Source: Dehalococcoidales bacterium
GTDB lineage: Bacteria; Chloroflexota; Dehalococcoidia; Dehalococcoidales; CSSed11-197
Length of the DNA: 57,092 bases
Reading direction: 5' to 3'
Assembly (NCBI GenBank): GCA_028717385.1
Contig: JAQUNW010000005.1
Location: forward strand, 1 to 57,092
Below, in pieces: positions 2,550 through 24,597 of the stretch. How positions within the stretch are numbered: the stretch's first letter is position 1; every line of letters starts with the position of its first letter. A program made the position numbers and the translations under genes. The notes beneath the pieces were generated by a model. It was not told where the DNA came from, ran no database searches, and saw only the letters and a program-made list of their open reading frames with translations.

Positions 2550-2601
2550 AAAGCCCAATTTGGGTTCTTTGTTACTGGCGTGTTAAAAAGCCAGTGCTTT
2601 G

Positions 2602-4587
2602 TTAACCTTGGCCTGCTACCTCGATTACCCCCATTTGTAGCAGTTTGTTGAAATAAAATTCTGCTTGGCTGCCAGCTGGTATCCATGAAGCGAAGTCATG
2701 ATAATAAAAAATGCCAGCCGTGCGCATGGTATCGATTATCCCTGCCCATTCAGCAGGTATGTTGAAGCGCATGCGTGTAACGGCATTGTAGCATTGTATG
2801 CCGCCTTCAATCTGAATAAGGTCCAGTCTTTTGATGGCTAGCTGAAATGCAGTATTGCTTGTATCCAGTTCTACATCACAAGGATGAATCGTTTCTCCTG
2901 GCAGTCGAGTATTAACCTCAGCGGCAAAAGCCTGATAAGCTCTGTGTACCGCTTCTCTTTGCTCAGCAGTCATTGCCGGATCGTGTACTCCCAGGTGGTT
3001 CAAGCTGAATTGAGCTTGGCCAGCAATTGGGGAAACAGTGGTTGCCTCCAGTCCATAGGCACTGGGGTCGCTCCCTACTTTTGAAGAACGTGTAGCTTCG
3101 AAAGGGAAACAGGAAACGAAGTTAAAACTGTCTTCGAGCTGGCTTACTACTTCGAGCGATTCCATTGCTTCTTGAAAATTGGTTGATGGTAAATCAGGTA
3201 TCAGGTTGATTTTAAGATTCAATCCTGCCTCTTTCGCGTTAAGCATAAAATCTATATTTTGTTGGCGATTGGCGCATTTATTCATGAGTTTCAGAACCCG
3301 GTCATTCATACTTTCGATTCCGACAGCAAGGAATTCGCAACCTGCCTCTACCATTGTTTCCATGATATCAACAGTAAAATGCCGATCGGCTATAGCAAAA
3401 CTGTGCCACTTTACCTGGAGACCACGCTCTAATATAAGTTGACTCATGCGGTTGGCGAAAGCCGGTGGGATAGCTTCGGTGATAACCGAAAAACGATTTA
3501 CTCCATGCTGTTTGATCTGGTACTCCATTTCATTTACAAATGAACTGGGGTTGCGGGAGCGGTATTTGGAACTGCCCCGGTATATTCCGGTGTAATCACA
3601 GTAATGGCATTTCCCCCAATAACAACCACGAGCCTGGACAATGCCAATTTCAGGTTCGTGTAAACTGTTGAGAATACCTGGTTCATATTCTGCATATGGC
3701 AGTTTATTTAAATCCAGGCCTTCGGCTGGCAAGTTTAAAACCACATTATCTCCTGATTTTGATGCCACTCCGGAAACCTTGTCCGGTTGCCATGTTCCCG
3801 ACTGCTTTTGAAAGGTCAGTTCAGCCAGGGGATATTCACCATCTGATATCACCAGGGCATCGATAGAAGGATGAGATGTGAGAATATGGGTGATATTGTC
3901 CTTATCCATAAAAGATATGGTCGGGCCGCCTAAAATTATCGAAACATCGGGCTTGTGCCGTTTAAGATAACGGCTGAGGATCAGCGCCGGCCCCAGCTGG
4001 GGTCCAGTTGGAACCGAAATTCCTGCAACAATCAGATCATCTGGCAGGGTATTCAAGAATATATTCCTTTCCAAAAATGCCTGATAGAACTGTGTAAAAG
4101 CAGAGCTAAAAAACTCCGGATTGGTCAGCTCTGCCAATGGTTTATCGATACGGTATGGTTTAGCTGCCATATTCAGGAGGTAACTCAATTGTGAAGCATC
4201 CTCTCTGAAAACGTGCTTGCCTTGCTGATCGGTAAAAAAATCGCGATAGCGTGAAATCAAGCGTGCGGCTACTGCTGGAACTGATTCCGGGGGTAATTCA
4301 AGATCATCGCCAAAGTTGCCTGAAATCATGTTATTCAAACGTTCTGGATCCAGCAGGTATACAGCAAAATCCTCGTTTAAATCTCCTTGCACGGAGGCAA
4401 TCCCCAGGGATGACAGGTATCCGGATAACACTGCAGTTGAAGGGTAGTAAGAACCAAAATTGGTTTCAACCAGCGGCGGGAAAAGCAAGGCTACTGCAGG
4501 TTTAACGAATGGCATGCATTTTCCTGATCTATCCCTATCCGGCTTTATTTTGGTAAGGCTCTGGTGATCTTTGGAAAGGCTAGCCAT
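2602..4587 (-). CDS. B12-binding-domain radical SAM protein with a C-terminal extension of about 130 aa
   Basis: Cys cluster ARGCYWGKCHYCDY, N-terminal Rossmann-like B12-binding region (IILGGPT), and an rSAM core (SVITEAIPP, AVGIESMND). The ATG at 4587 lies 1 nt after the stop of the upstream gene; the ORF track start is 4668. Confidence 0.85.
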   Translation of the reverse strand: MASLSKDHQSLTKIKPDRDRSGKCMPFVKPAVALLFPPLVETNFGSYYPSTAVLSGYLSSLGIASVQGDLNEDFAVYLLDPERLNNMISGNFGDDLELPPESVPAVAARLISRYRDFFTDQQGKHVFREDASQLSYLLNMAAKPYRIDKPLAELTNPEFFSSAFTQFYQAFLERNIFLNTLPDDLIVAGISVPTGPQLGPALILSRYLKRHKPDVSIILGGPTISFMDKDNITHILTSHPSIDALVISDGEYPLAELTFQKQSGTWQPDKVSGVASKSGDNVVLNLPAEGLDLNKLPYAEYEPGILNSLHEPEIGIVQARGCYWGKCHYCDYTGIYRGSSKYRSRNPSSFVNEMEYQIKQHGVNRFSVITEAIPPAFANRMSQLILERGLQVKWHSFAIADRHFTVDIMETMVEAGCEFLAVGIESMNDRVLKLMNKCANRQQNIDFMLNAKEAGLNLKINLIPDLPSTNFQEAMESLEVVSQLEDSFNFVSCFPFEATRSSKVGSDPSAYGLEATTVSPIAGQAQFSLNHLGVHDPAMTAEQREAVHRAYQAFAAEVNTRLPGETIHPCDVELDTSNTAFQLAIKRLDLIQIEGGIQCYNAVTRMRFNIPAEWAGIIDTMRTAGIFYYHDFASWIPAGSQAEFYFNKLLQMGVIEVAGQG

Positions 4588-4588
4588 G

Positions 4589-5788
4589 TTATTCTGTTTT
4601 TGCTTCCGGGGCTGGCACCAAAATGTCGATAATTGGCGTGAGTGCAGCTTTATCAAATCCCACTTCAACTATGCGTATATTACGAACTTCTTCCGGCTGG
4701 GCAAATGACGCAGGTTGATTTTCTGGTTCATTCTCTACCAATGGTGCGGTTTCGGCAGAGGCTTTCTGAGAAGAGAGAGCTTCTGCCACTTGTGTTGGTA
4801 TGGGGTATTTGGTAACAATAAAACTTCCCATTATTGGTTTAAAGGAGTCGTAATTCCTTTGTACAATATCCATCTCACCTTTTTCATACCATTCGGGATC
4901 GTCCATGCACTCTATGATGATATCGGGGCGTAAAAAGCGGCTGAAGTCGGATATCAAACCAATGGTTTTTGGTTGATTGTCGATATACAATACCATGCTT
5001 GGCCACTCTAACCGGGGCCGGGATTCCAATCCCTTAGATCTGATGGTGATCCATTCTCTCCTGGTGGTGGCATTTTTAGCCGACCAAGCGCAGTCAGTAA
5101 GGTCCGCCCCAAAAGCAATATAGCGGTTGTGGGTGCTTTCCCTGACGATAATGTCAGACATCATAAAAGATGGATCATATCCTTCGTGCCCGAGCAGTAG
5201 CGTCTCCAATTTCTGCGGTTCAAGCACATTTTCATCGAAGAAGCCCTTTTTCTCATCCGGCTGAAGTTCGTGGCACATAAACCTCATTTCGTCATACGGT
5301 ATAGCCAGCGCTTGATCTGGTTTTAACAGGCTGGCTATAGCCATGATTAGCCACTTTTCATAACCCATCTTTATAATTGGAAGCGCATAAGAAGCGACCA
5401 AGCGGGCTGCTTCATCTTCAAAATCATCCAGAGTCAGTTCTTTTTTGAGTAGCATGAACAGTGGATCGCGCAGGGGGCGAATAAGCCCGTTAAGCGGATC
5501 TGTTATCATCCAGTCTAATTTGGAAGGCATCTTGATCTCTGATATCTCCAGAGCTGGCATTAGTTGGGCAGCCTCGGTTTTGTATTTATCACTCACTTCA
5601 AGGGCTTGGATCAGGATTTGAGGTGTTTTCTCCCTGATAAAAGCTTTTCTTACCTGGTTGAAGACGGTGTAAAAACCTTCATTCAGTTCTTTAGGGATAA
5701 GTGTGATCCCTTTACGGATAGTAATTTCGGGATTTTGAGCGATGAAATTTTCGAGCGCTTGAAAGGCTGATCGCCATTCACCTTGCAT
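4589..5788 (-). CDS. hypothetical protein (399 aa), no family recognised
   Basis: Long ORF with an AGGAGG RBS upstream, coupled to the rSAM gene (stop 4591..4589, next ATG 4587). It has an acidic, low-complexity C-terminal tail. Confidence 0.7.
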   Translation of the reverse strand: MQGEWRSAFQALENFIAQNPEITIRKGITLIPKELNEGFYTVFNQVRKAFIREKTPQILIQALEVSDKYKTEAAQLMPALEISEIKMPSKLDWMITDPLNGLIRPLRDPLFMLLKKELTLDDFEDEAARLVASYALPIIKMGYEKWLIMAIASLLKPDQALAIPYDEMRFMCHELQPDEKKGFFDENVLEPQKLETLLLGHEGYDPSFMMSDIIVRESTHNRYIAFGADLTDCAWSAKNATTRREWITIRSKGLESRPRLEWPSMVLYIDNQPKTIGLISDFSRFLRPDIIIECMDDPEWYEKGEMDIVQRNYDSFKPIMGSFIVTKYPIPTQVAEALSSQKASAETAPLVENEPENQPASFAQPEEVRNIRIVEVGFDKAALTPIIDILVPAPEAKTE

Positions 5789-5829
5789 GGTTTCCTCCTG
5801 ATGATTAGTTTCATTGATTTCCGTGTGTA

Positions 5830-6693
5830 TTAAAGCACCTTTTTTAAAGCATCGGCAATAGCTGGTATCAGCTGGGCAATTTTTGTCGCCGGGGTTGGCC
5901 GTACAATTTCGCCCATGTGACGGTTAGCCTGAGCTGCCTTTAAGCAGGCTTCAGCCGGATCCATTCCGGACGATATCAATGCTGATACAATACCCGTAAT
6001 TGTATCTCCGGTGCCGCCAATGGGTTCAAGGGCAGGGATCAGCGGATCTTTAACTACTCCGTAGACTTCCCCTTTAACCATTATATGATCAATAGCGGCT
6101 TTCACCAATAGATAATCAGGGGCATTGCCACTGGCATACGCTTCTTTACCCAGCCGGGCAATTTCAGTATTGTCTACATTAAAGATAAAGTGCTGTACAT
6201 AAGCTGGATGAGCAGCCTCAGCATCGGCTATAAAGCTCAACTCGCCAGGATCCGGAGTGAACAAGTTGAATTTTGGTGCGAGTCCTATCGCTTTAGCATT
6301 GAGCAAGGCGCCAGCATCGGCAATGAAGAATGGCTTGGGAGTTGTTTCTTCTACTGCTTGTACCAGTTTTAAAAACGGCTCTCGTGTAGGTAAAAGATAA
6401 TGAAGAGTGAGTACAGTAGATCCAATAGATGAGATTTCCTGGGTTAAATATTCAAGTATCTTGATAGTTCCATCCCCCATGCCGGTATCACCATAGGTAA
6501 CCAGATGAGGCGGTTCGATACCTAGTGTCTGGCAGGTGGTAGCGGCTGCTGACGCCATGGCGGCAGTTCCCAAGGTGACGTACTTGCCTTCGAGGGCATA
6601 GTCGCCGATATCTAATCGGCCTTTCTGATACCTGCATGCACCCTGTGTCAAGGGAATACCATCAATCGGTATAGTTCCTGCGATAACTAACAT
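5830..6693 (-). CDS. YjeF_C / ribokinase-fold protein (NAD(P)HX-dehydratase-like carbohydrate kinase family)
   Basis: C-terminal motif IGGTGDTITGIVSALISSG (GGxGDxLxG type), FTPDPGEL (compare TPHPGE) and LLVKAAIDHIMVKG. Its ATG shares one base with the TGA of the upstream gene. Confidence 0.7.
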   Translation of the reverse strand: MLVIAGTIPIDGIPLTQGACRYQKGRLDIGDYALEGKYVTLGTAAMASAAATTCQTLGIEPPHLVTYGDTGMGDGTIKILEYLTQEISSIGSTVLTLHYLLPTREPFLKLVQAVEETTPKPFFIADAGALLNAKAIGLAPKFNLFTPDPGELSFIADAEAAHPAYVQHFIFNVDNTEIARLGKEAYASGNAPDYLLVKAAIDHIMVKGEVYGVVKDPLIPALEPIGGTGDTITGIVSALISSGMDPAEACLKAAQANRHMGEIVRPTPATKIAQLIPAIADALKKVL

Positions 6694-7232
6694 CAGATCT
6701 TGCTCCTTTCTTCCCTAAAGAGTTCGGCTGCCTTCTGATAGGCATGCTCCATGGTATAGGCGCAGATAGTCTTTCCCAGCTCCTTGGGGGAAGGCCCTTC
6801 CCCAATCACGGTGTCAATCAAGCTCAGACCGAGCAAGGGTACATCTGGTCAGCCGCCACCGGAGATGTTAACAATAACACCAGTACCTTTCCGGTAGGTC
6901 ACTTTCATATTCCCGCACCTTACCATTGTATAACCTGCATAGTCGGTCACCTTGATCAGCTGGGTAAGGTACACCGGGACCAACTGGGTGCCCTTTGGCA
7001 GGAACAATATATCCATAAAGAGGATGTTATTATTCTCAAGGATACGCTCTACTGCATCCACATCGTCAGCATTGATTTCCAGAGCCATATCGCAACCAGT
7101 GCGATATTCCGGAGGCGGCGCAACTTCATTTGATGAGTAGCCGGCATGCTCTAAAAAATGCTTACCACGCATGGCATAGTAAATGTAGTCGAATACTACC
7201 AGAGCTTTTTCCTTTTCAACTTCTTTGGTCAC
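6693..7232 (-). CDS. DUF3343 (Se/S-carrier-like) domain protein. Candidate selenoprotein of 179 aa, reading the in-frame TGA at 6851..6849 as Sec.
   Basis: GTG start at 7232 behind AAGGAGG. The N-terminal part fits the DUF3343 pattern (VVFDYIYYAMRGKHFLEHAG...PPPEYRTGCDMALEI). The ORF track stops at TGA (6849), but the frame stays open for 51 more codons to TGA 6695..6693, which overlaps the next ATG. Confidence 0.55.
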
Positions 7233-7261
7233 TTTTTCCTCCTTGGGGGAGATACTGTTGC

Positions 7262-8428
7262 CTAACCCGGCCAGTAGAAATCACCTGCACGGGAAAAAAT
7301 TGATACCAATAGCACTGTATACCAAACATATAGCGAAAGGGCGGTTGTAATTGCCAGAGCGATAAATGGTCCTCGTACCTTGAACTTTGTGTCTGTCCAA
7401 TAAAAATCGATTGCCTCTTCTGAACATGCTTCAACGCAACGACCACATTTAATGCATGAGCCTCCCTGGGGGTGTCCCTTGTCTACATCTTCCGGATTAA
7501 GAGCGAACATGCGGCAAGAGTTAACACAATCCAGGCATTTAACACAGCGTTCCTGGTTAATTTTTAAGCGAAATGGGCTGATGCGGTCGAGGAGGTTGAT
7601 AATCGTACCGGCAGGGCAAATGTAGCAAAACCATCGTCTTTTAGTTAAGATTGGTAATATAATTGCCATTATTCCAAGAATACCAATCACCAACCAGAAA
7701 GCTTTCAGCTTGAGCCATAAAACCGGGTAAAAAAGGTTTACCAGGGAAAAACCCAGAAATATTGAGAGCAACACCAGCGCCAAAACCAGGCTGTAACGTA
7801 ATATATTTATCCATGGCTTTAAAGGTCCATAATAAAATTTATTATTAATGCCAATCTTCTGCCTGAGAAAATCCAACCGCACAAATTCCCGTCTGCCTGA
7901 TGCAGCTGCTTCTGGCAGGCCGCCAAGCGGGCAAATCCATCCGCAATAAGCTCTGCCAAACAAGAGGAGAATGATTGCGTAGGGCACCATGAATAGGGCG
8001 AAAGTGGCCAAGTTTCCTGGTATTTGAGTTTGCCAGGCATTAACCGAAGGCAAGAATTCAGCGCCTCCCCAGAAGATGGCTGGCAAAACCAATGGGTGGG
8101 GGAATTGCAAGGTTCCGATACCGCCGGTACCCGGAAAATAGTACCCTGGATTAAAATGATCCACCCATTGCATGAACTGGGTTGGGCCCCAGAGCATGAT
8201 CAGCCCCGCTAAACTCAGGGCAATAACCGTAGCAAGTGCAATGAAAAAAGACCGCCTGAGGCGTTCAATCTTGCCTGACTTCAGGATATAGAATATCATC
8301 AAGCCGCTGATTAATCCCAGCGCTACACCCAATATTGGGTAAGGTTTGGAGTACCACCAGCCGTTGAAGGCTGCGGTAACAAGCCCCATCAACAAAGCCA
8401 GCCGGAACGGGCTTAACTTCATTGTCAT
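7262..8428 (-). CDS. NapH/MauN-like integral-membrane 4Fe-4S polyferredoxin
   Basis: Multiple TM segments plus CGWICPLGG, CYICPAG, CVKCLDCVNSC and CIKCGRCVEAC. Confidence 0.8.
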   Translation of the reverse strand: MTMKLSPFRLALLMGLVTAAFNGWWYSKPYPILGVALGLISGLMIFYILKSGKIERLRRSFFIALATVIALSLAGLIMLWGPTQFMQWVDHFNPGYYFPGTGGIGTLQFPHPLVLPAIFWGGAEFLPSVNAWQTQIPGNLATFALFMVPYAIILLLFGRAYCGWICPLGGLPEAAASGRREFVRLDFLRQKIGINNKFYYGPLKPWINILRYSLVLALVLLSIFLGFSLVNLFYPVLWLKLKAFWLVIGILGIMAIILPILTKRRWFCYICPAGTIINLLDRISPFRLKINQERCVKCLDCVNSCRMFALNPEDVDKGHPQGGSCIKCGRCVEACSEEAIDFYWTDTKFKVRGPFIALAITTALSLYVWYTVLLVSIFSRAGDFYWPG

Positions 8429-9618
8429 CCTATTCGTCCACCGATGATGTCGATAAAGTTATTTAATCTTTCTTGAATATCACTCGTGTTTGTGTAAACG
8501 AGAGAAGAGTCGATGAATACTGGAGGTATTGCCAACTCATGATAAAGAGCATCACCAAGAGCTTCGTAAGACTTCATCAACGGTTTGTATTCCTGTGGCC
8601 CATAAAAAACGAGACCATGTACATTGTATCTCCTTGCAGTAGTGATCATGCGGTATTTCTGGGCGGTATAATCTTCCATATACAGACAGGGAGCATTATA
8701 CAAATAGCGCTCAACCAGGTAATCGAAAGGCGCTGGGAAACCAAAAACTGGCACTCTTTTTCTCAGGAGCATTGATCCCGAACAGCTATAATCGGTTACA
8801 ATAACTGCATTTGAGCCTTTTACCAGTTCAAGCAGTTCGTTGCTAATAAACCCGGCAAGCATAAGACGCGGTTTGGCATCAACAGGCAATCCCATTAGAT
8901 TAATCTGGGCAAGCTTGTCCTGATGCTCCAGAAGGTTTCTTTTAAAAACTGGCCTTTCCAGGGAATACCCGGCTTGCTGCAGCTTGAACACATCTTGCCA
9001 TTCTACCGGTGATCTCCCGCGTATTGGGTATTCATATAATCCCCGGAGGAGTTCCTTTATCTTGTCACTTTGGGTGATAGCCTTGGAGAGGTTAATAATA
9101 TTAATCGGTTGTCTGTTAAATTGACCAAGGTTTTTTGCGAGCATCTTCAGGTTGTGGCGGAATTTAGCTGTGGCTTTATAATCGCTTCGGTAGCGGTTAA
9201 CACGTGGCAGTTCCAGAGTAAATATTGATTGATCAAAACACTCTTTAAAACAATGCGTGGCTGTGTAGCTATCGTTTTCTGGACAAGTAATAATAAGGCT
9301 GTCAAGCACGTTCAAATCGAGTCCTTCAGCAAGGTTAGTCTTATGTTGGACGCTGCAGGCCTGCCAGCATTTGCCAGGTTTTTCTCCAATAGAACTGCCG
9401 GTTGGAATCAATGGCAAACGTAATGGGAACATGCCTGAAGCCAGAATAAGCTCTTCAGGTACCAGCGGGCAGAAATACCCGGTGACTTTTAATCCTAACT
9501 GTCTGGCATGCTGTATATTGTTCAGGATGTTATCGAAATCTTTTGATTTGAAGCCTTGCCGCCTGTGTATTTTATTTGCATTCATGATTACTGCAGGATT
9601 GTCGTCGTTCTTTGCCAC
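8425..9618 (-). CDS. 2-hydroxyacyl-CoA dehydratase / BcrC-BadD (HgdB-like) family Fe-S protein
   Basis: Contains VTGYFCPLVPEELILASGMFPLRL, typical of the family. The proposed GTG start at 9618 overlaps the upstream TAG (TAGTG). The ORF track ATG at 9651 would overlap the upstream gene by 34 nt. Confidence 0.7.
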   Translation of the reverse strand: MAKNDDNPAVIMNANKIHRRQGFKSKDFDNILNNIQHARQLGLKVTGYFCPLVPEELILASGMFPLRLPLIPTGSSIGEKPGKCWQACSVQHKTNLAEGLDLNVLDSLIITCPENDSYTATHCFKECFDQSIFTLELPRVNRYRSDYKATAKFRHNLKMLAKNLGQFNRQPINIINLSKAITQSDKIKELLRGLYEYPIRGRSPVEWQDVFKLQQAGYSLERPVFKRNLLEHQDKLAQINLMGLPVDAKPRLMLAGFISNELLELVKGSNAVIVTDYSCSGSMLLRKRVPVFGFPAPFDYLVERYLYNAPCLYMEDYTAQKYRMITTARRYNVHGLVFYGPQEYKPLMKSYEALGDALYHELAIPPVFIDSSLVYTNTSDIQERLNNFIDIIGGRIG

Positions 9619-10055
9619 TACCCCGTAGTCCTCAATAGCAGGTCCAGCCATTTGATGGTAACGATATTAAAGTAAACTATCCCAAGGTAGAAACCCGCTA
9701 AATAAAGCAGGGCGGATTGTCTGCCTTCGGCCGCCATGACGTGTTGTCTGAAAGGGCAACCTTCAGCAAAAACTGAGAAAAAGCCCATTCCCAATGAGCC
9801 GATTATACCGGCGATCAGGATTCCGGGGGAAGTAAAATCAAAACCAAGGGGGAAATTGGTAATCTCTCCCCCTATAAAATAGAAGAAAGTATATCCAACT
9901 GCGCCGCCGGCAATTAAACCGATTAATCCCTTTAAGCGGTAAGAGTCTTTTAGCATAATGAAATCTCGGATTCCGCTAATCGTACAGAATTTTGAACGTT
10001 GCCCAAGATAACCAATAACTATACCAAGTACCAGAGTTGCAATAGAAGCGATCAT
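9618..10055 (-). CDS. YeeE/YedE family (sulfur/selenium transport domain) membrane protein, C-terminal half
   Basis: Polytopic 145-aa protein with SKFCTISGIRD and AEGCPFRQH motifs. It overlaps the preceding half by 4 nt. Confidence 0.75.
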   Translation of the reverse strand: MIASIATLVLGIVIGYLGQRSKFCTISGIRDFIMLKDSYRLKGLIGLIAGGAVGYTFFYFIGGEITNFPLGFDFTSPGILIAGIIGSLGMGFFSVFAEGCPFRQHVMAAEGRQSALLYLAGFYLGIVYFNIVTIKWLDLLLRTTG

Positions 10056-10546
10056 TGAGGGACTCCTTTCTTGGCTTTAAAGCGAATATAGATAATTGCC
10101 AGCACTACCCCGATCGCAATAGAGGCAAGAGCTATCAGTGCGGTTCCTGAACCGTAGGATACAAGTAAGGCAGTTCTGATTGGGCAGGACCCCCATAACA
10201 AGCCCAAATTAGCAACCAGAAAGCCAAAAATAATGGCAAGAAACCTTTTTCTCACCGGGCCCGGCTGGAATGCGAATTCTTTCTTGCGTCTGGCTGCTAT
10301 AAAGGAGCCAATAAAAACGCCTGCCACAGTGAGCACTGGATATACGATAAAAGCATCTCTTATTGGCCAGTTGGTGCCAATCACTCGGTTAGTAAGCCAA
10401 GCAAAAAGGTCGTTGGGATGGCCGATAAAACTGATACCATATGCCTCGGGTGGTTGTACCTTGAAATAGGCCTGTACCAGGGCAGCCCCGAGTCCCATGA
10501 TAACGCCGATTATAAATACTCTGTAAGAGCTTATTTTCAACTTCAT
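10052..10546 (-). CDS. YeeE/YedE family membrane protein, N-terminal half
   Basis: Polytopic 164-aa protein with the WGSCPIRT motif. Together with 9618..10055 it makes a split transporter. Confidence 0.75.
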   Translation of the reverse strand: MKLKISSYRVFIIGVIMGLGAALVQAYFKVQPPEAYGISFIGHPNDLFAWLTNRVIGTNWPIRDAFIVYPVLTVAGVFIGSFIAARRKKEFAFQPGPVRKRFLAIIFGFLVANLGLLWGSCPIRTALLVSYGSGTALIALASIAIGVVLAIIYIRFKAKKGVPQ

Positions 10547-10547
10547 A

Positions 10548-11111
10548 TTAAACTAACCTCAGCCAGGTAGGGAAAGGAACTTTTGCCTTTTCCCCATGGA
10601 ATGGGCAAGGATAACTGGTGGCTAGTTTGGCATCGAGTTGATGAGAACGCCCACCAAAGAACTCCAGGGTTACCCCTTCGAAGTTTACCCGTTTTTCAAA
10701 TGTGAGGGTTGTCTTTGCTGGTACTTCTACAAACCATGGATAAGATAATAGAGTCTTGCCAGTTACCTCTACCCAAACTTCCTCGTCATCAACTTCGATT
10801 TGCATCATATATGATTCGTCAGGGTCATGAAAGGTGACTAATACTACTCCCCAGGATTCTGTATCCGTCCAATTCTCCAGGGTTAGTTTGACATCATAGG
10901 TGTACCTTTCAAAATCCCAACCGCAATCCATGCCAAGTTCATAATGAGAGACCATGTCGGATTCGAGAGATACTACTTCTATCCCGAGCACTCCTGTAAT
11001 CCGTCCAGCGCCGTCACATGCAGGGCAGGGGACCTCGACGAAGGTAACTGCGGTTAACAGAACTAACCCGATGATGAAGTAGGTGTAAGCGTTGAATAAT
11101 TTGTTTTTCAC
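10548..11111 (-). CDS. membrane-anchored hypothetical protein with split Zn-ribbon-like Cys motifs
   Basis: GTG start behind AAAGGAG. One N-terminal TM helix, then CPACDGAG (DnaJ-type CxxCxGxG) and a C-terminal CPFHG. Confidence 0.6.
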   Translation of the reverse strand: MKNKLFNAYTYFIIGLVLLTAVTFVEVPCPACDGAGRITGVLGIEVVSLESDMVSHYELGMDCGWDFERYTYDVKLTLENWTDTESWGVVLVTFHDPDESYMMQIEVDDEEVWVEVTGKTLLSYPWFVEVPAKTTLTFEKRVNFEGVTLEFFGGRSHQLDAKLATSYPCPFHGEKAKVPFPTWLRLV

Positions 11112-11132
11112 GATACGCTACACTCCTTTCGG

Positions 11133-11168
11133 GGCAGAGGCGAGGATCAAATGATACTCGCCTCTGCC
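11133..11168 (-). other. perfect 12-bp stem / 12-nt loop hairpin between the Mo-hydroxylase genes and the downstream operon
   Basis: GGCAGAGGCGAG-gatcaaatgata-CTCGCCTCTGCC. No U-tract follows on the minus strand, and the RBS of the next gene follows directly. Confidence 0.45.
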
Positions 11169-11211
11169 ATTCCATCTAACCTGATTATATATTGTTGTTA
11201 GTGTTTCGTCT

Positions 11212-12165
11212 CTAGACTAGTGCAAGTAACGCTTTTTTCACCATTCCTTTGGTGATCTGGATCTTGTATTTGTTATGTGGTAGAGCGGTTGCGCCTTTGA
11301 CTGCTTCATCGCCGGCCGCAATGGCATTGGCTTCATTGATAGCCTTGCCTTTGATGAAATTTTCGGCATTGGTAGCACGCCAAGGTATAGGTGAAACACC
11401 GCCTAACACGATTTTAGCATCGCTAACATTTCCACCAGAAATAGTAGCAATGACAGCTACGCTGACCTCTGGGAAGTCGATAGCTTTCCGCCATGCCCAC
11501 TTCTTGTAGACTTGTTTGGTGCCTGCAGCTGGTGCGGGTACCTGTATTTCGGTAATAACTTCGTTGGTAGCCAGGGTATTAGCAAGTCCACCGTAAAGGT
11601 CAGCGATGGGAAATGAGCGTTGGTTGGTAACTATAGTTGCCCCTAAAGCTACCAATACCGGAGCGCAATCAGAAGGGCAGACTGCAAAACAGCCGCCTGC
11701 TCCCCACAAAGCGCTATGTTTTTTGTTGTTACCAGGAACCATATAGCACAGCAAGCCGCCTTTCCTGAGGCAATAAAACTCATTGTGCTCAGCTCTGTAG
11801 TACCAGCACCGTACTGCCTGACAAAGATTACCGGCAATGGTGCCCATATTTCTGAGCTGAGGAGTGCCTACTTTGTGTGCCGCTTCAGCCAACGCCGGAT
11901 ACTTTGAACTGACAATCGTCGACTCATATATTGCGGTGAGTCTGGTGAGGGCACCGATCTTGAGCGTTCCACTTTCTTCTTGTATGTACTCCAATCCCGG
12001 AATGGTCTTGATGTTTACCAGTTTGGTAGGAGGATTGGAATAGATCATGCCTTTCAGTGTGCATAAAATATCGGTTCCGCCGGCAATGATGGCTGAACCA
12101 GTGCCTAATGCCGAGACCGCTTCCTGGACTGACGTTGCATTGACATGCTGATTTATCTTATTCAT
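11212..12165 (-). CDS. molybdenum hydroxylase FAD-binding (medium) subunit, CoxM/XdhB-like
   Basis: 317 aa containing IAGGTDIL, NMGTIAGNL and the CO-dehydrogenase flavoprotein C-terminal region. Confidence 0.85.
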   Translation of the reverse strand: MNKINQHVNATSVQEAVSALGTGSAIIAGGTDILCTLKGMIYSNPPTKLVNIKTIPGLEYIQEESGTLKIGALTRLTAIYESTIVSSKYPALAEAAHKVGTPQLRNMGTIAGNLCQAVRCWYYRAEHNEFYCLRKGGLLCYMVPGNNKKHSALWGAGGCFAVCPSDCAPVLVALGATIVTNQRSFPIADLYGGLANTLATNEVITEIQVPAPAAGTKQVYKKWAWRKAIDFPEVSVAVIATISGGNVSDAKIVLGGVSPIPWRATNAENFIKGKAINEANAIAAGDEAVKGATALPHNKYKIQITKGMVKKALLALV

Positions 12166-12177
12166 TTCGTATTCTCC

Positions 12178-14451
12178 TTAAGCCTTTCCCAAGTGTTTCA
12201 GAATGCGGTCGGGACTCATCGGTCGAGTGAATTTAGAGAAATCGCCACCGATGGCATTGTGTATAGCCATCAACAAGGCTGCGAAGCCTGACCCATTGGC
12301 TGCCGGTTCACCCAGACCGCTCATACCGAAAGGACCGGTAGCATTGACGCTTTCGGTTAACCAGCCACCATGAACATCATCATTGATATCCATGGCAGTG
12401 TGAGCTTTCATATCTATATGGGTTTGGTCGAGCAGGGCACCTCTTTGAGGATCATGGTGAACATCCCAGAGAAGGCCTTTTCCACAGGCTGTCCATAGGC
12501 TCGAGCCGATCTGACCTCCGGCAGTAACCGGATCAATAACTCGGCCGCAATCAGTAGTATGGGCGTGCGCCAATATTTCTACATCCCCGGTATCGGGGTC
12601 AACCGCGACTTCAAAAGCACTGGCTACGCCCTGGCGATGGAAAGCAGGAGTACCGATCGGTTTGCCCTGGAATGGCCTTCTCAGTACTTCTGCGAAACTT
12701 TTTCCCACACCGATGATAGGTTTAGATATTCTGGCCATGACTTCAGCATGGGTGAGAGATTTGGACTGGTCGGTCTTAACAAAGATCTTGCCATCCCTGG
12801 CATGAAGGTCATCGACAGCAACGCCCAGTTGGTTGGCAGCATGAGCAAACAGCTGCTCGCGGATATCCAGAGCTGCCATCAGAGAGGCGGAGCCGTTACT
12901 GGAAGCACCCTGGCTACCAGCTTGCATGCCGCCATCTGGAGCCTGATCATTAGTACCGTAGGACGAACAGTAGACCGCTTCGAACGGAAGCCCAAGAGCT
13001 TCAGCAATGATATTAGCCTGAGTTACTGAGTTGGTACCGTTCTGGTTGTTACTCTGGCCGGTGACGAAGTTACAGGTGCCATCGGTGTTCATATAGATGA
13101 CCACTCCACGTCCAGCGCCCGAATGGCCATGCCGATCGTTGAAGCAGGCAATGCCTACACCGTGGAGCCGTCCGTCTGGTAGAGTTCTGGTACCGGGAGC
13201 ATGATATTTTTGTTCATAGTTTATCTTTTCGTTTACAGCTTCAAGGCACATGCGGGTAGAAGCGCAAGTCATTGGCCGGCCGTTATCTTGATTGAGCATA
13301 TCGTCGGTGATGGTGACCTTGCGCAGGTATTCCAGAGGGGTCATACCAATAGCATCAGCCATAGCGTTAAGTGCTACGCATAGAGTGAAAGCTGCTTCGG
13401 GGTGCATCAGGCAGCGATGTCCGGCTCCAAAGCCGGTATTAGTGGCTACGCCGTAAGTTTCCTGGGTAACGTTAGGTAGGATATAGCTGCAGTCAATATT
13501 TTCCCAACCATTACCGGCAGCAGCGTTGAAGCCGCCGTGGCAGTACCATTTTTGCTGCATAGCGGTCATCGTCCCATCCCTTTTACCGCCGAGCTTAGTG
13601 ATACCCTTCGGGGAATAGTGGTTGCGGCGTCGGATGGAGTGTAATCTTCTGGTACGCGAAATGGCTACTGGAACACCTGCTTTCTTGGAAAGCAGGGCAC
13701 ACAGAGAAGGTTCGCAGGTTTGCCCGCCACCGCCAAGGCCGCCGACACCGCTGGTTTGGCGGATATGGCAACGGCTCTGGTTAACTCCTAACTGAGAGGC
13801 GTATGTGCGGTTCTGGGCATGAGGATTCTGACCCTGGTCGTATCCGTATACATGCTCGCCTTCCCACCAGGCAACACCGGTAACCGGCTCAATAGTATTT
13901 TGAGTGTGAGGTCTGAGGAAGGGGGTTTCAACTTCAATGGTTACCTCGGCTTCTTCAAATCCTGCCTCTATATCACCACGAGAGTTACGTGCCGGGTTAG
14001 CCTGGACGTTGCTGTCAGGGAAAGTACCTGCCAGGGTAGAGCCGGGCTGCCAGGCTTCATCGGGATCGAGAACGAAAGGTAATTCCTCGTATTCAACTTC
14101 AATCAACTCAACTGCACGCTCGGCGATAAAGGGATCGGTAGCAGCGACTGCTGCAATTTCCCAGCCCCACACCAGCACTTCATCCGTCTTGTACTGGGGA
14201 TTTTCCTGCATTGTGATTACAGCTTTAACACCTTCTAGTTCTTCAGCCTTGGAGGTATTGATGCTTTTAACTTTGCAGTGGGCATGGGGGCAGCCAAGGA
14301 TGGCCGCAAAGAGTTTCTTGCCCGGGAAATAATCGTAAGGGAACATATACCTACCGGTTACAATTGAAGGTCCTTCATAAGCACGGTGAGGCTTGCCGAC
14401 TACGGCTAAATCCGTACCAAATTCAAAATCTATGGGTAATGATATCGCCAT
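12178..14451 (-). CDS. molybdopterin-binding (large) subunit of a xanthine dehydrogenase / aldehyde oxidase family enzyme
   Basis: 757 aa with the a/b-hammerhead N-terminal region and MoCo-binding domains (GPFGMSGLGEPAANGS near the C-terminus). Confidence 0.9.
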   Translation of the reverse strand: MAISLPIDFEFGTDLAVVGKPHRAYEGPSIVTGRYMFPYDYFPGKKLFAAILGCPHAHCKVKSINTSKAEELEGVKAVITMQENPQYKTDEVLVWGWEIAAVAATDPFIAERAVELIEVEYEELPFVLDPDEAWQPGSTLAGTFPDSNVQANPARNSRGDIEAGFEEAEVTIEVETPFLRPHTQNTIEPVTGVAWWEGEHVYGYDQGQNPHAQNRTYASQLGVNQSRCHIRQTSGVGGLGGGGQTCEPSLCALLSKKAGVPVAISRTRRLHSIRRRNHYSPKGITKLGGKRDGTMTAMQQKWYCHGGFNAAAGNGWENIDCSYILPNVTQETYGVATNTGFGAGHRCLMHPEAAFTLCVALNAMADAIGMTPLEYLRKVTITDDMLNQDNGRPMTCASTRMCLEAVNEKINYEQKYHAPGTRTLPDGRLHGVGIACFNDRHGHSGAGRGVVIYMNTDGTCNFVTGQSNNQNGTNSVTQANIIAEALGLPFEAVYCSSYGTNDQAPDGGMQAGSQGASSNGSASLMAALDIREQLFAHAANQLGVAVDDLHARDGKIFVKTDQSKSLTHAEVMARISKPIIGVGKSFAEVLRRPFQGKPIGTPAFHRQGVASAFEVAVDPDTGDVEILAHAHTTDCGRVIDPVTAGGQIGSSLWTACGKGLLWDVHHDPQRGALLDQTHIDMKAHTAMDINDDVHGGWLTESVNATGPFGMSGLGEPAANGSGFAALLMAIHNAIGGDFSKFTRPMSPDRILKHLGKA

Positions 14452-14453
14452 TG

Positions 14454-15281
14454 CTAGCTACCTCCAGCGACAATAGTGTCAATAATGCGAGTATAATCGA
14501 TGCAGAAGCATAAGTTCCCGGATAGGGCTTCCCTTGCTTGTGCACGAGTGGGTTTGGGGGTCTTTTTGTAAAGAGCAACTGTTGTCATGATATTGCCGGG
14601 GGTGCAGTAGCCGCACTGGAAGGTAGATCTTTCCAGGAACAGCTTCTGTACTGGGTGCATTTCCGCACCGTTGGCAAGACCTTCGATGGTTAATACTTCA
14701 TGACCTTCAGCTTCACAGGCCAGTACCATACAGGCATATACCGGGGTACCGTCCATATGAACAGTACAGCTTCCGCATTCTCCGCGATCACAGCCTATCT
14801 TAGTGCCGGTAAGCCCCAGTTTTTCCCTAAGGACGAATCCCAGCGACCAGTTAGGATCAACCACTATGGGGTAATCCTTGCCGTTGACTTTGAGGGTTAC
14901 CATACCTTCAATTGGTGCGATAGCCTCAAGGTGCTGGGCTTCGAGGTGGGCTTTAAGATCTGCCAGGGAAGAAAATTCCTGGTTATCGTAGGGGCAGAGA
15001 TACTTGGTAACCGGATCGCCTGCTTCGTGAGCTGAGTCAACATGAGATTGCAGCGCAGCAAACGTGTCAAACTCTATGCTGTCGTAGGGACAGACGAATT
15101 TGGCGACTGTGGTAGTTACTTTTACTGTATTGGTTGCCGTCTCGGTAGTGGTATCACCTTTGCAGGCTGCAAGCAGGGCAGACGAACCGATGGCGGTACC
15201 GCCAACGACAATGCCGGTGTTCTTGATAAACTGTCTTCTGGATATCGAGCTATCTTTGGTTAACTCGTCTTTTTCGGGCAT
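14454..15281 (-). CDS. (2Fe-2S)-binding small subunit of the Mo hydroxylase, with a Tat signal, lipobox and two zinc-finger-like repeats
   Basis: SRRQFIK twin-arginine motif, LLAAC lipobox, Thr-rich linker, two C-x2-D-x3-F-x5-L-x2-H-x4-H repeats, then the CDRGECGSCTV and CGYCTPG 2Fe-2S motifs. Confidence 0.85.
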   Translation of the reverse strand: MPEKDELTKDSSISRRQFIKNTGIVVGGTAIGSSALLAACKGDTTTETATNTVKVTTTVAKFVCPYDSIEFDTFAALQSHVDSAHEAGDPVTKYLCPYDNQEFSSLADLKAHLEAQHLEAIAPIEGMVTLKVNGKDYPIVVDPNWSLGFVLREKLGLTGTKIGCDRGECGSCTVHMDGTPVYACMVLACEAEGHEVLTIEGLANGAEMHPVQKLFLERSTFQCGYCTPGNIMTTVALYKKTPKPTRAQAREALSGNLCFCIDYTRIIDTIVAGGS

Positions 15282-15557: not shown

Positions 15558-15864
15558 CTGCTACCTCGATTATTGGAATGATGCATATGCCTCCGTTTAC
15601 CAACTCAAACAATAAGCATCACCTCCCGAATAAAATATAAAAAGATTATGCAACCTATCGATTCAGTTGTTAATTTATGATTATGGCTGTATATTTATGA
15701 CATAATAAGACTATCGTATTATTATTAATAAGAACAATAAGGCATTATACTTATTTATTTTCTAATACGGATTAATACTTTTTGCTCTTTACCTATTGAA
15801 ATTGGATTCTATAAGTAGTACCATGGTGGTATATTTCGTGTTCTCGTATGTATCGGATGGAAAT

Positions 15865-16509
15865 ATGCGAGTATTGATAATAGACGGACACGATATCTTT
15901 CAGCAGGGGCTGGAAAAAATCCTGCAATGTGAGCCAGGCATTGAGGTGGTATCACACTGTGGTGCGTTGTGGGAAAAGGCAGTTATTGAAAACAAACCGG
16001 ATATTGTAATCATTGATATCTGCCTGGAACAAATTAACCCCTTTGAACTTATAAGACAGGTTCTGCAAAGTGAACCCAATATCAAGTTCGTTGTTCTTAC
16101 CTATTCCGAGTTGAGGAAAGATCTTATTTCATCGTTCGAAGCAGGGGTTAGCGCATATATCTCCAAGCATATCGATATAAAAAACCTTATACAGGTAATT
16201 AATCGCGTTTCCCGGGGGGAAGTAATCATTTACCATCCATCGAAAAAAGATTTCATCATCAAGATGCTTACTCGAGAAGAGCCTTTAAAAGGTGCACCCA
16301 GGGCAACAGCTTTAACCAGACAGGAACAAGTGGTTATGTCTCTGGTTGAAGAAGGTCGAACTAACCAGGAAATTGCTGATACTCTGGTGATTTCCCCGCA
16401 TACTGTCAAAGTTCACATGAGAAACATCATGGAAAAGCTACAAGCGCCCACCAGGCAGAGAGCAGCCTATCTCGCTCGTGAACAAGGCTTGATAGATAGT
16501 TCCAATTAA
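15865..16509 (+). CDS. NarL/FixJ (LuxR-type HTH) response regulator, orphan
   Basis: MRVLIIDGHD receiver start, DIVIIDICL phospho-acceptor region, and a C-terminal LuxR HTH (TNQEIADTLVISPHTVKVHMRNIMEKL). No kinase gene is adjacent. Confidence 0.85.
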   Translation: MRVLIIDGHDIFQQGLEKILQCEPGIEVVSHCGALWEKAVIENKPDIVIIDICLEQINPFELIRQVLQSEPNIKFVVLTYSELRKDLISSFEAGVSAYISKHIDIKNLIQVINRVSRGEVIIYHPSKKDFIIKMLTREEPLKGAPRATALTRQEQVVMSLVEEGRTNQEIADTLVISPHTVKVHMRNIMEKLQAPTRQRAAYLAREQGLIDSSN

Positions 16510-16581: not shown

Positions 16582-17685
16582 TTACCTTAGCATCGCGCTG
16601 TTGTTTAATACCTGGGTACCATATAGGAATAAAACATCAGAACCGGGTTTAAACTCAATGAATTCCCCAACCAGATCTGTGGTGATATAACGCAGGTCGA
16701 CCATGGTTATCTTTGAATAGCTCTCCAGCAGGAGGGGGGCGAGCGAACTGGCAAATGAATCGCGGAAAATTACCAGCTCCGCGGTGTTCTTAGCGTTTGG
16801 ATTATCGATGGTGATTAATGCTTTTGCACCTGAGAGAAACAAATCATAGGGATCGATACCGTTGAACTCTTCCGGAACGTATACATTACTATAGGTGCTT
16901 GTTTCATAATCAAAAACAATGGCATGTTCAATTGTTGGGCTGGTCAGGTAAACCAGCGTATCCGCAGTTATATTAAGAGCAGCATGACCGTAATATGAAC
17001 CATAAAAAGGGGAGAGCTCCAGCCGGGTATAATCTACTTCTGATGCAAGAACGCTACCCCCCATCGCTCTCAAGAGTTTATCTGCAACGTCGATAATCTT
17101 ATTCTGACTCCAGTGGATATCGGTTTTGTAGTAGTCCTCAAGAGACAGTTCGGTAAAAACATCGATGTATTCAATATTAGAAACATTTTGTATCAATAGC
17201 TCGATCATTCTTTGGTAATCAATCGAAGGGTAATCATTTTGTGGGCTAGTAAAATAGTTTTTATCTGGAATCACCGAATAAAAGACGTTCATGCCCTTCA
17301 GGTATTTTTGATAAACCTGGTTGAATTTTGCTGCTGCGTTGATGATGGACTTCTCCTTTAAAGGATATTCAATCTTGATGATGTGGCCATCCTTGATATA
17401 CATATTGTTATTGTCATTTTGATTCAGAAGAAATAACTTTACATAAGCTTTAAAGCTCCTGAATGTATCGCGAAGAATAAATTGGTCTAAAAAGTATTCT
17501 TCGAATTCTTCAAAAAAATCCCCGCTCCATAGTTTCTCCGGCGAAAATTGGGGTAGCTGGGTGAGCTTGCGACGTTCGGGATAGGAAAATTCATGGCTTG
17601 GAGTAGCGAGATTCGCCAGCATCAAGCCAGCGGAAAAAACTACAAAGCAGACTATTACCACTATATTTGCGTATTTTGTTTTCAT
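16582..17685 (-). CDS. DHHW-family (AlgX/AlgJ/DltD-like) extracytoplasmic protein
   Basis: N-terminal TM anchor, a TDIHWSQ (DHHW-type) motif, and a position next to an MBOAT gene. Confidence 0.75.
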   Translation of the reverse strand: MKTKYANIVVIVCFVVFSAGLMLANLATPSHEFSYPERRKLTQLPQFSPEKLWSGDFFEEFEEYFLDQFILRDTFRSFKAYVKLFLLNQNDNNNMYIKDGHIIKIEYPLKEKSIINAAAKFNQVYQKYLKGMNVFYSVIPDKNYFTSPQNDYPSIDYQRMIELLIQNVSNIEYIDVFTELSLEDYYKTDIHWSQNKIIDVADKLLRAMGGSVLASEVDYTRLELSPFYGSYYGHAALNITADTLVYLTSPTIEHAIVFDYETSTYSNVYVPEEFNGIDPYDLFLSGAKALITIDNPNAKNTAELVIFRDSFASSLAPLLLESYSKITMVDLRYITTDLVGEFIEFKPGSDVLFLYGTQVLNNSAMLR

Positions 17686-17693
17686 GTTAAATT

Positions 17694-22452: not shown

Positions 22453-22475
22453 TTATAATTCTCCTCCGGTGTTTA

Positions 22476-22841: not shown

Positions 22842-22844
22842 GTT

Positions 22845-24552: not shown

Positions 24553-24597
24553 GTATATTAAGATACCTCTCAGTTAATCTATACTGGAAGAGCGCCC

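Follow-up and report, generated by a model that had tools for sequence, protein, structure and literature searches.

A Dehalococcoidales operon encoding a DUF3343-DUF8182 selenoprotein and a kinase-fold partner beside a predicted exported molybdenum hydroxylase suggests a selenium-handling system

Our analysis of a 57,092-nucleotide stretch of a Dehalococcoidales metagenome-assembled genome (GenBank assembly GCA_028717385.1, contig JAQUNW010000005.1, positions 1 to 57,092; hereafter the window) revealed a nine-gene operon, g1 to g9, that encodes a selenoprotein of the DUF3343 family (g6) immediately followed by a kinase-fold protein (g7), together with a split YedE/YeeE-type channel (g2 and g3) and two iron-sulfur (Fe-S) proteins (g4 and g5), and that lies downstream of the genes for a molybdenum (Mo) hydroxylase. 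The combination of channel, g6 and g7 is most consistent with a selenium-handling module. We tentatively propose in addition that the cluster as a whole is a selenium uptake and reductive-processing system that may serve the adjacent Mo hydroxylase, and we are considerably more confident of the module than of this complete chain.

The operon occupies positions 11111 to 2602 of the minus strand, and re-reading of the sequence bore out all nine coupled open reading frames (ORFs) given in an initial annotation made from the letters alone, as well as each of the junctions that it described. A single nucleotide separates g1 from g2, g2 and g3 overlap by 4 nt (ATGA type), g3 passes into g4 through TAGTG, g4 and g5 overlap by 4 nt, g6 is preceded by 29 nt containing AAGGAGG, g7 is reached through TGATG, 41 nt containing AGGAGG lie ahead of g8, and a 1-nt gap leads to g9, whose ATG is at 4587. 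The GTG at 9618 is the probable start of g4, because GAGGA precedes it and the alternative, longer start at ATG 9651 has no ribosome-binding site; the 1-nt overlap of g6 with g7 places the end of g6 at 6693 and its extent at 6693-7232. A palindromic, terminator-like hairpin just 3' of g9 (2552..2566, no strand assigned) is the probable end of the operon, and a scan for sigma-70 promoters and terminators was uninformative, with counts no higher than in shuffled sequence. Domain calls on the nine proteins were made with Pfam and NCBIfam models, which returned no family for g1 and g8. Consistent with the source of the contig, g8 is 100% identical to a protein named for Dehalococcoidales.

The gene g6 (6693..7232, minus strand) encodes 179 residues comprising a DUF3343 and a DUF8182 domain, with an in-frame TGA at 6849-6851 that would specify selenocysteine (Sec) 128 in the motif SGGG-U-PDVP. 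Its match to Se_S_carrier (DUF3343, PF11823) reached 49.9 bits, for a cut-off of 25, and precomputed Pfam annotation lists PF11823 together with PF26554 (DUF8182). The TGA stands at the same codon in five loci, namely the window and four Dehalococcoidia contigs (L001-L004; related loci are numbered with the prefix L), and the 51 codons downstream of it are conserved at the protein level. The corresponding column holds cysteine (Cys) in all 19 full-length homologues and is also invariant in a set of 28 homologues, giving the invariant motif IVNISGGGCPD(V/I)P; two further Cys are invariant, Cys47 in RTGCD and Cys157 in CAY. Full-length homologues measure 170-213 aa and come from Dehalococcoidia, Methanocaldococcus, Methanotorris, Methanococcus aeolicus, a spirochaete and others.

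A hairpin resembling a selenocysteine insertion sequence (SECIS) element (GCUC-GGUCU-GAGC, 6822..6834, minus strand) has a stem starting 15 nt after the UGA and an apical loop at bases 22-26 counted from the U of the UGA, and it is kept in the same five loci. The stem measures only 4 bp, the outer stem is weak, and Rfam at permissive thresholds gave chance matches only for this region. The distance of the apical loop from the UGA equals that in a second selenoprotein gene of the window, a Sec-peroxiredoxin (25626-26336, plus strand) with its TGA, at 25869, in the motif FTFV-U-PTE; the hairpin of this gene has an AGUU loop and begins 8 nt past the UGA (11 nt counted from its U). The TGA of the peroxiredoxin occupies the position of the catalytic Cys, and the organism therefore decodes Sec; none of selA, selB and selD lies in the window. 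Taken together, the conserved TGA, the Cys homologues, the downstream hairpin and the second Sec gene identify g6, as judged from sequence, as a genuine selenoprotein, for which the initial annotation had nominated it as a candidate. Gene callers truncate g6 at 127 aa and split the Sec-peroxiredoxin gene. A structure model of a natural Cys homologue of g6 (predicted local distance difference test score, pLDDT, 86.7) contains two ferredoxin-like domains, and a fold search with it returned generic ACT/PII ferredoxin-like folds only, with no informative neighbour; a profile of g6 matched no sequence in the PDB. DUF8182 is mentioned in no paper found by our literature search, and in a 2022 review of prokaryotic selenoproteins DUF3343 appears only in the summary of Lin et al.

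The partner protein, g7 (5830..6693, minus strand), was expected to have the YjeF_C/ribokinase fold, and this assignment is supported by a match to PF01256 (Carb_kinase) over residues 103-264, just above the cut-off (31 vs 27 bits), and by the motif E.IGGTGD (the GxGD anion-hole/catalytic-Asp motif), which is invariant in 31 family members. Other family invariants are GDxGxGxG and FTPDxxExxFLADxxAxHPAY, and no Cys is conserved. A true NAD(P)H-hydrate dehydratase, NnrD, was considered and rejected: g7 scored 26.8 bits to TIGR00196, whose cut-off is 129.85, with the N-terminal 100 residues unmatched. Searches against the PDB gave matches at E>=0.13 only. Its relatives number more than 1080 at the 90% cluster level and are named only as "NAD(P)H-hydrate dehydratase", "sugar kinase" or hypothetical proteins, and no paper linking YjeF with selenophosphate was found in our literature search.

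The association of g6 with g7 extends well beyond the Dehalococcoidia. A metagenome scan with a g6 alignment recovered more than 581 relatives; the search pattern forced Cys forms, so that Sec forms were under-sampled. Among copies with enough downstream sequence, g7 directly follows g6 in 64 of 66, and a YedE-like gene lies close to the pair in 26 of 38. Neighbour clustering of the 39 loci of at least 7 kb, with representatives checked against NCBIfam, revealed YedE in 30, TusA-like genes in 15, LysR_Sec_metab in nine, NapH-like genes in seven, HGD-D genes in six, YedF in six and SelD in five. The markers scored 267 bits for LysR_Sec_metab (cut-off 250), 220 for YedF (cut-off 110) and 345 for SelD, and at least one of SelD, YedF and the selenium LysR was found in 15 of the 39 long loci. 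The typical arrangement, LysR_Se(-) / YedE-[TusA]-g6-g7-TusA/YedF-SelD, suggests that YedE, g6 and g7 together handle selenium. The initial annotation had proposed import and reductive activation of selenium or sulfur; this neighbourhood favours a link to selenium, not to sulfur alone, with sulfur as a possibility that is weighed below. No paper or curated model describing the g6-g7 pair was found in the literature and models searched, the literature search on Dehalococcoidia, selenocysteine and molybdopterin found nothing relevant, and the statement that no described pathway matches this gene set held for the papers and curated models that we searched. Two paralogous g6-g7 modules occur per contig in L013, L017, L020 and L092, one with fused YedE and TusA/YedF and the other with split YedE; in L092, the module with split YedE has g6 in the Sec form.

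The channel of the window is divided between g2 (10052..10546, minus strand), the N-terminal half (PF04143, Sulf_transp, 31.8 bits; TIGR04112 positions 53-134), and g3 (9618..10055, minus strand), the C-terminal half (PF04143, 45.5 bits; TIGR04112 positions 186-301), which aligns to the C-terminal half of fused YedE genes. Both halves thus match PF04143, in agreement with the split YedE/YeeE transporter first recognised here. The selenium subfamily model seleno_YedE (TIGR04112) gave 66 bits for g3, against 29.7 bits for TsuA, and 21.5 bits for g2; its cut-off of 200 bits is not applicable to a split protein. The conserved Cys of the central channel loops were read in GSCPIR of g2 and in FCTISG and EGCPFR of g3. 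Upstream of the channel, g1 (10548..11111, minus strand) has one N-terminal transmembrane helix and a predicted extracytoplasmic domain with four conserved Cys (CPxCxGxG, C63 and CPFHG). Its orthologues in L001-L003 share 62-65% identity, and distant homologues stand directly upstream of split YedE in L091 (32%, E=1e-24) and L082.

The gene g4 (8425..9618, minus strand) encodes an Fe-S protein of the HGD-D family (PF06050, 104.6 bits; cut-off 28.4) whose solved relatives are BzdN (6e-8) and the double-cubane protein (1e-5). Assignment to the double-cubane proteins themselves was rejected: the model NF040772 gave 76 bits (cut-off 350), and the seven-cysteine motif of Haft and Gwadz, CX19CX18-19CX29CX166-170CX32-34CX32C, is incomplete, the last Cys and the TCPYF/ETTC segment being missing. 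Only C61, C290 and C322 are conserved among g4 orthologues, and the protein probably carries a single [4Fe-4S] cluster with an open iron site. The reported lack of an activator gene held as well, with no BcrAD/HgdC-type ATPase found among the window's larger ORFs scanned. The overlapping g5 (7262..8428, minus strand) encodes a membrane polyferredoxin, with 43.9 bits to Fer4_5 and 92 bits to the NapH model TIGR02163; the latter is below the subfamily cut-off of 213, and we describe g5 as NapH-like, as originally proposed. Its sequence contains two CX3CP motifs (CGWICP and CYICP) and two of the form CxxCxxCxxxC (CVKCLDCVNSC and CIKCGRCVEAC).

Several different reductant genes adjoin the g6-g7 core in other loci. 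In L006 (Methanocaldococcus), L036 and L062, g6 homologues have as neighbours double-cubane-like HGD-D proteins together with a BcrAD activase; the neighbours are an E3-like disulfide reductase with Sir2 and a GcvH-like protein in L013 and L017, an FAD/CCG protein with a GcvH-like protein in L092, and NapH-like, DsbD_2 and XdhC-like proteins in L021 and L023. NapH-like genes were found in L043 and L091 in addition to the seven long loci. Because these genes appear interchangeable from locus to locus, our interpretation is that the carrier requires a reductant, for which this operon uses g4 and g5. In L020, L023 and L025, a five-gene [NiFe]-hydrogenase-like operon, identified by reading the sequences and comprising large and small subunits, a ferredoxin with a twin-arginine translocation (Tat) signal, a membrane subunit and a protease, directly precedes g6-g7 and split YedE.

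Upstream of the operon, three minus-strand genes encode a Mo hydroxylase of the xanthine-oxidase family. The small [2Fe-2S] subunit, MoS (14454..15281; Fer2_2, 88.8 bits), bears a Tat signal (SRRQFIK) and a lipobox (LAAC), both read from the sequence. The large, Mo-cofactor-binding subunit, MoL (12178..14451; MoCoBD_1/2, Ald_Xan_dh_C), contains the catalytic-Glu motif GLGEPA and has 4-hydroxybenzoyl-CoA reductase (4-HBCR) alpha as its closest solved relative (E=1.7e-39). The FAD subunit, MoM (11212..12165), includes an insertion of about 40 residues with four Cys (C119, C131, C139 and C158) of the PaoB/HcrB [4Fe-4S] type; it aligns contiguously and Cys for Cys with 5y6q_B, the medium subunit of a Methylobacillus aldehyde oxidase (E=5e-38), with further matches to PaoB and 4-HBCR beta, and CutM of CO dehydrogenase aligns in two pieces only, flanking the insertion. 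None of the three subunits reached a curated equivalog cut-off, those of the models for selenium-dependent xanthine dehydrogenase (XDH) included, and scores to the models for PaoA/C and HcrA/B/C were far below. The enzyme is, by its predicted features, an exported hydroxylase of the PaoABC/4-HBCR type. Residues ~63-117 of MoS, between the Tat/lipobox signal and the [2Fe-2S] domains, form two finger-like repeats (C-x2-D...H-x4/5-H) with weak matches to eukaryotic C2H2 finger models; this segment is missing in the L002 orthologue.

The placement of the operon directly downstream of the Mo hydroxylase, with a hairpin lacking a U-tract in between, was as first described: the gap between MoM and g1 measures 100 nt and holds a 12-bp G+C hairpin (11133..11168, minus strand), preceded by the conserved TATAATCAGGTTAG and followed by GGAG and the start of g1. 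A strong hairpin of different sequence occupies the same position in L001-L003, again with the conserved TATAATCAGGTTAG ahead of it, and Rfam at permissive thresholds gave chance matches only and no family for this element. It could stabilise the mRNA or act as an attenuator, or else belong to an internal promoter as its leader.

The order MoS-MoL-MoM-g1-g2-g3-g4-g5-g6-g7-g8 recurs in the Dehalococcoidia contigs L001, L002 and L003 and partly in L004. Protein identity of L001-L004 to the window spans 37-86% overall, being highest for g6 (83-86%), g7 (75-80%) and g2/g3 (72-82%) and lower for g5 (55%), g8 (40-44%) and g4 (37-38%). More divergent forms of the unit were found in L082, with the order MoS-MoL-MoM-g8-like (26%)-small protein-g1-like-split YedE-NapH-like-g6-g7, and in L091, an abundant contig of marine Dehalococcoidales, with the order MoL-MoM-g8-like-g1-like-split YedE-two HGD-D-multihaem cytochrome c-NapH-like-g6-g7. 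The g6 proteins of these two loci are 37% (L082) and 66% (L091) identical to that of the window, with g6 of L091 in the Sec form and its g8-like protein matched at an hhalign probability of 100%. In L020 and L025, a related Mo hydroxylase lies at most 10 kb from g6-g7 and split YedE. The gene order is thus kept beyond chance. The suggestion that the operon is one functional unit stands insofar as the order is retained in five Dehalococcoidia contigs and rearranged in two distant lineages; it does not stand as a fixed nine-gene set, because the unit is modular, consisting of the YedE-g6-g7 core, a Dehalococcoidia layer (Mo hydroxylase, g1, HGD-D and NapH-like proteins) and a g8-radical S-adenosylmethionine (SAM) pair. 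A gene of the CbiH-like precorrin-3B C17-methyltransferase family (261 bits to TIGR01466) lies directly 3' of g7 in L082 (~11441-12247) and L091 (11489-12232), and L021 has another member of this family upstream of g6.

Selenite reacts with thiols to form selenotrisulfides, and the proposed selenium system could operate as follows. In analogy to YeeE and thiosulfate, the split YedE would import a selenium species, with g1 as a putative extracytoplasmic accessory of the channel. The carrier g6 may capture selenium on Cys47, Sec128 and Cys157, probably as selenotrisulfide or perselenide, and g7 could catalyse an ATP/ADP-dependent activation or transfer, acting on carrier-bound selenium or on its acceptor. 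Electrons for the reduction of bound selenium would be supplied by g5 and the translationally coupled g4, a pair that may stand in for the ATP-driven activase accompanying HGD-D relatives elsewhere. The product would then finish the Mo cofactor in the cytoplasm, before Tat export, as a labile Mo=Se (or Mo=S) ligand, and g8 and g9 may act together in maturing or modifying exported redox enzymes, g8 as a scaffold. What we infer from these genes comprises every step of the chemistry, what g7 acts on and where the selenium ends up; delivery to the Mo cofactor is suggested by recurrent adjacency, as the Mo hydroxylase adjoins the module in the window, L001-L003, L020, L025, L082 and L091, and XdhC-like genes lie near it in L021 and L023.

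Published observations would be consistent with parts of this scheme. The yedE mRNA of M. maripaludis rises 5.3 log2-fold on selenium depletion (PMC11097638), in Slackia, STRING links YedE/YedF/DUF3343 to HGD-D and its activase (PMC5322559), SelD-encoding genomes account for 955 of 970 double-cubane proteins (bioRxiv 10.1101/2022.07.06.499078), and in the third selenium trait the genes for selenium use lie in clusters with enzymes of the xanthine-oxidase family (PMC2432076). A number of observations weigh against the scheme. None of selD, yqeB, yqeC and xdhC was found in the window, so that the markers of selenium-dependent Mo hydroxylases are absent there. Most g6-g7 loci have no Mo hydroxylase nearby, and the core therefore has a more general role; modules with g6 in the Sec form occur without the Mo enzyme in L092 and L093. 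The g8-radical SAM pair of L094 stands without selenium genes beside rdhA/rdhB-like genes, and in L009 the module is coupled to ThiS/ThiF-like sulfur-carrier genes. The Tat-exported Mo enzyme and the cytochrome c of L091 fit a link by electron transfer at least as well as maturation. DUF3343 proteins also occur in organisms without SelD (PMC5322559), and an M. maripaludis yedE deletion mutant lacked a clear selenium phenotype (PMC11097638).

The electron-transfer link just mentioned would make the exported Mo hydroxylase the electron source or sink of the unit and not a recipient of selenium. An external substrate would be oxidised or reduced, with g5, and either g1 or a cytochrome c as its partner on the outside, passing electrons through the membrane to the cytoplasmic g4; electrons of low potential, such as those released by oxidation of an aldehyde, would make the activase dispensable, and g4 would reduce carrier-bound selenium or sulfur or another substrate. 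[4Fe-4S] insertions of the 4-HBCR/PaoB type are associated with ferredoxin-linked electron flow, and the presence of such an insertion in MoM, the Tat signal and lipobox of MoS, the 4-nt overlap of g4 and g5 and the failure to find an activase in the window would all agree with this route, as would the multihaem cytochrome c gene directly upstream of the NapH-like gene in L091, the DsbD_2 genes adjoining NapH-like genes in L021 and L023 and the hydrogenase operon beside the module in L020, L023 and L025. However, it leaves unexplained why YedE, g6 and g7 are coupled into the unit across such deep divergence, no HGD-D protein accompanies the core, the NapH-like protein and the Mo enzyme in L082, neither g5 nor g1 has an evident quinone or haem site, and the direction of flow is unreadable from sequence. 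We consider this route, which the initial annotation did not raise, the most serious of the alternatives, and as a whole somewhat unlikely.

Alternatively, the unit may handle sulfur, importing thiosulfate or a related species and supplying Mo=S, in place of XdhC and a cysteine desulfurase, with the Sec of g6 merely a more reactive catalytic residue. Import of thiosulfate is proven for YeeE/TsuA, and the channel has weak TsuA matches; TusA-like genes in 15 of the 39 long loci, the ThiS/ThiF-like genes beside the module in L009 and the resemblance of DsrE-like and GcvH-like neighbours to sulfur-relay systems point the same way, as does the occurrence of DUF3343 beyond selenium users (PMC5322559). 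On the other hand, SelD, YedF and LysR_Sec_metab pass their equivalog cut-offs in 15 of the 39 loci, the score of g3 to seleno_YedE is double that to TsuA, and selenoproteins are typical of selenium-handling loci. We regard the sulfur version as improbable. Least credible of all is a lack of any functional link, with the selenium module, the g8-radical SAM pair and the Mo hydroxylase as independent units, neighbours by chance in one lineage, under separate promoters and the conserved TATAAT-like box and hairpin ahead of g1 as the start of a second transcript: the 100-nt gap with TATAATCAGGTTAG and the hairpin, the many cores without a Mo enzyme, the occurrence of g8-g9 without the core in L094 and the different placement of g8 in L082 and L091 would suit it, but the Mo enzyme, g8, g1, split YedE, the NapH-like protein, g6 and g7 are still found in each other's company even where g6 has fallen to 37% and g8 to 26-29% identity, and overlapping start and stop codons run through g1-g9.

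The locus resembles several described systems without being a member of any of them. It shares a YedE-type channel and a protein with a DUF3343 domain with the neighbourhood YedE/YedF/DUF3343/LysR_Se/SelD of Lin et al. 2015 (PMC5322559), and relatives of the core adjoin SelD, YedF and LysR_Sec_metab; the association with HGD-D was already present in the Slackia STRING table of that study. The DUF3343 proteins of Lin et al. measure 80-100 aa, whereas g6 is a two-domain DUF3343 + DUF8182 protein with the motif SGGG(U/C)PD(V/I)P, and the unit described here has an obligate partner, g7, that is unmentioned in the literature searched, a split YedE and an operon without YedF, SelD or LysR. The third selenium trait, SelD-YqeB-YqeC-XdhC-MobA-like (Haft and Self 2008, PMC2276186; Zhang et al. 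2008, PMC2432076), likewise combines selenium genes with a xanthine-oxidase-family enzyme, and the labile selenium of the Mo cofactor would be a plausible target here too. YqeB/HP1, YqeC/HP2, SelD and XdhC are, however, not in the window, and the Mo enzyme is of the Tat-exported PaoABC/4-HBCR type, below the models for selenium-dependent XDH and nicotinate dehydrogenase. The locus belongs neither to this trait nor to the selenium neighbourhood of Lin et al. nor to the HGD-D systems, all three of which it resembles.

Thiosulfate uptake by YeeE/TsuA and YeeD/TsuB uses a channel of the same family (PF04143) with re-entrant-loop Cys and a cytoplasmic Cys carrier encoded alongside, but the channel described here is split and scores better to the selenium subfamily, and its carrier has an unrelated fold of two ferredoxin-like domains with CPD(V/I)P in place of the TusA motif CPxP. 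Systems of HGD-D proteins with a BcrAD-type activase have in common with g4 the protein family and three cluster-type Cys, whereas g4 has neither an activase nor the seven-cysteine motif and is coupled to a NapH-like polyferredoxin. PaoABC and 4-HBCR share with the Mo enzyme the three subunits and the four-Cys [4Fe-4S] insertion of the FAD subunit, and PaoA also the Tat signal of the small subunit; the differences lie in the order S-L-M, in scores below every equivalog cut-off, in the lack of a PaoD/XdhC gene and in the additional finger-like repeats of MoS. In the DsrC/DsrMKJOP system a small Cys carrier holds a chalcogen that a membrane-associated Fe-S complex reduces, and the cupric reductase CcoG is a NapH-like polyferredoxin acting as a reductase in cofactor assembly; the likeness to both would be a functional analogy only, with no sequence relationship to DsrC or DsrK.

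Relative to the literature and curated models searched, three elements of the locus are new: the Sec/Cys DUF3343-DUF8182 carrier as a selenoprotein family, g7 as the obligate kinase-fold partner of g6, and an HGD-D protein wired to a NapH-like membrane protein beside an exported Mo hydroxylase. According to PMC11097638, no prokaryote has been shown to possess a pathway specific for the uptake or trafficking of selenium, and two concrete, highly conserved proteins, the carrier g6 and its partner g7, make prokaryotic selenium trafficking open to experiment; their presence in canonical YedE-...-YedF-SelD loci of many uncultured lineages makes the idea testable genetically and biochemically. The locus also bears on how labile selenium reaches Mo hydroxylases and on the unexplained statistical tie of HGD-D/double-cubane proteins with SelD (bioRxiv 10.1101/2022.07.06.499078), gives an example of HGD-D proteins wired to a membrane polyferredoxin and not to an ATPase, and adds a selenoprotein family that gene callers truncate. 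A more far-reaching version of the selenium system, which we regard as unlikely, would make g6-g7 a missing and widespread step of selenium assimilation between YedE and SelD or the final acceptors, and the window an instance of YqeB/YqeC-independent insertion of labile selenium into a new class of exported, selenium-dependent Mo hydroxylases, with reduction by a membrane-fed, activator-free HGD-D protein.

The last two genes of the operon appear to form a separate pair. The 399-aa protein g8 (4589..5788, minus strand), of an undescribed family, has an N-terminal helical domain followed by a poorly modelled alpha/beta part (model pLDDT 70). The initial annotation had called it an orphan, but a profile search found 524 representative clusters of relatives at E<=1e-3, 295 of them at E<=1e-30; a genome-collection scan seeded with g8 gave three loci only. 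A fold search of the model against the PDB returned nothing significant, and a nuclease was considered and rejected, PD-(D/E)xK folds (Mus81, SgrAI and Can2) appearing only at E>0.1 and the PD..E-like motif not being conserved in the family. Because the invariant positions of the broad family are mainly hydrophobic, Pro or Gly and no structural match is significant, we favour a scaffold or chaperone over an enzyme. The following gene, g9 (2602..4587, minus strand), encodes a class-B-like radical SAM protein: the radical SAM part of the original description as a B12-binding radical SAM enzyme is supported by PF04055 (53 bits), and its B12 part is not, PF02310 giving 18.5 bits (cut-off 32.1). 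The best NCBIfam match, TIGR03975, a C-methyltransferase model for ribosomally synthesised and post-translationally modified peptides, reached 112 bits, under its cut-off of 281.85, all class-B NCBIfam models gave partial alignments below cut-off, and the C-terminal domain of ~150 aa is of no recognised type. The Cys triad of g9 is CX4CX2C, in GCYWGKC(H/A)YC, not the canonical CX3CX2C, and is the same in the L001 orthologue (9661-11610, minus strand).

A g8 gene and a radical SAM gene are adjacent or at most 2 kb apart in five loci (the window, L003, L096, L001 and L094), and in L082 and L091 g8 follows MoM with no radical SAM gene seen. We treat g8-g9 as a separate pair that, by its gene neighbours, appears tied more to exported redox enzymes than to selenium. 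Homologues of g8 at L005 1545-2954 and L094 3631-5022 adjoin reductive-dehalogenase-like genes (rdhA/VcrB), which may be chance in rdh-rich genomes or may mean that g8 serves Tat-exported cofactor enzymes generally. Between g8 and the radical SAM gene of L001 lies a gene (8849-9508, minus strand) for a GcvH-like protein with Tat signal and lipobox, that is, an exported lipoyl-carrier-like lipoprotein, and a second Mo hydroxylase, with fused S and L subunits, and rdhA/rdhB are found near the radical SAM gene of the same locus.

Elsewhere in the window, the Mo operon and the gene for a LuxR-type response regulator (15796-16509) are divergently transcribed, and a pair of genes for an MBOAT acyltransferase and a DHHW protein (16582-19097, minus strand) is probably involved in O-acylation of a surface polymer. 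The region 21460-24981 (minus strand) encodes one Mrp/NUBPL-type ParA ATPase, two CbiA/MinD-ferredoxin fusions and two Nitro_FeMo-Co (NifX/NifB-C-like) proteins, and is adjoined by the gene for a Fur-family regulator (25063-25536, plus strand). A T-box leader (30208-30463, minus strand; 105.6 bits) lies directly upstream of the gene for an ABC substrate-binding protein (29078-30055, minus strand), which is followed by permease and ATPase genes.

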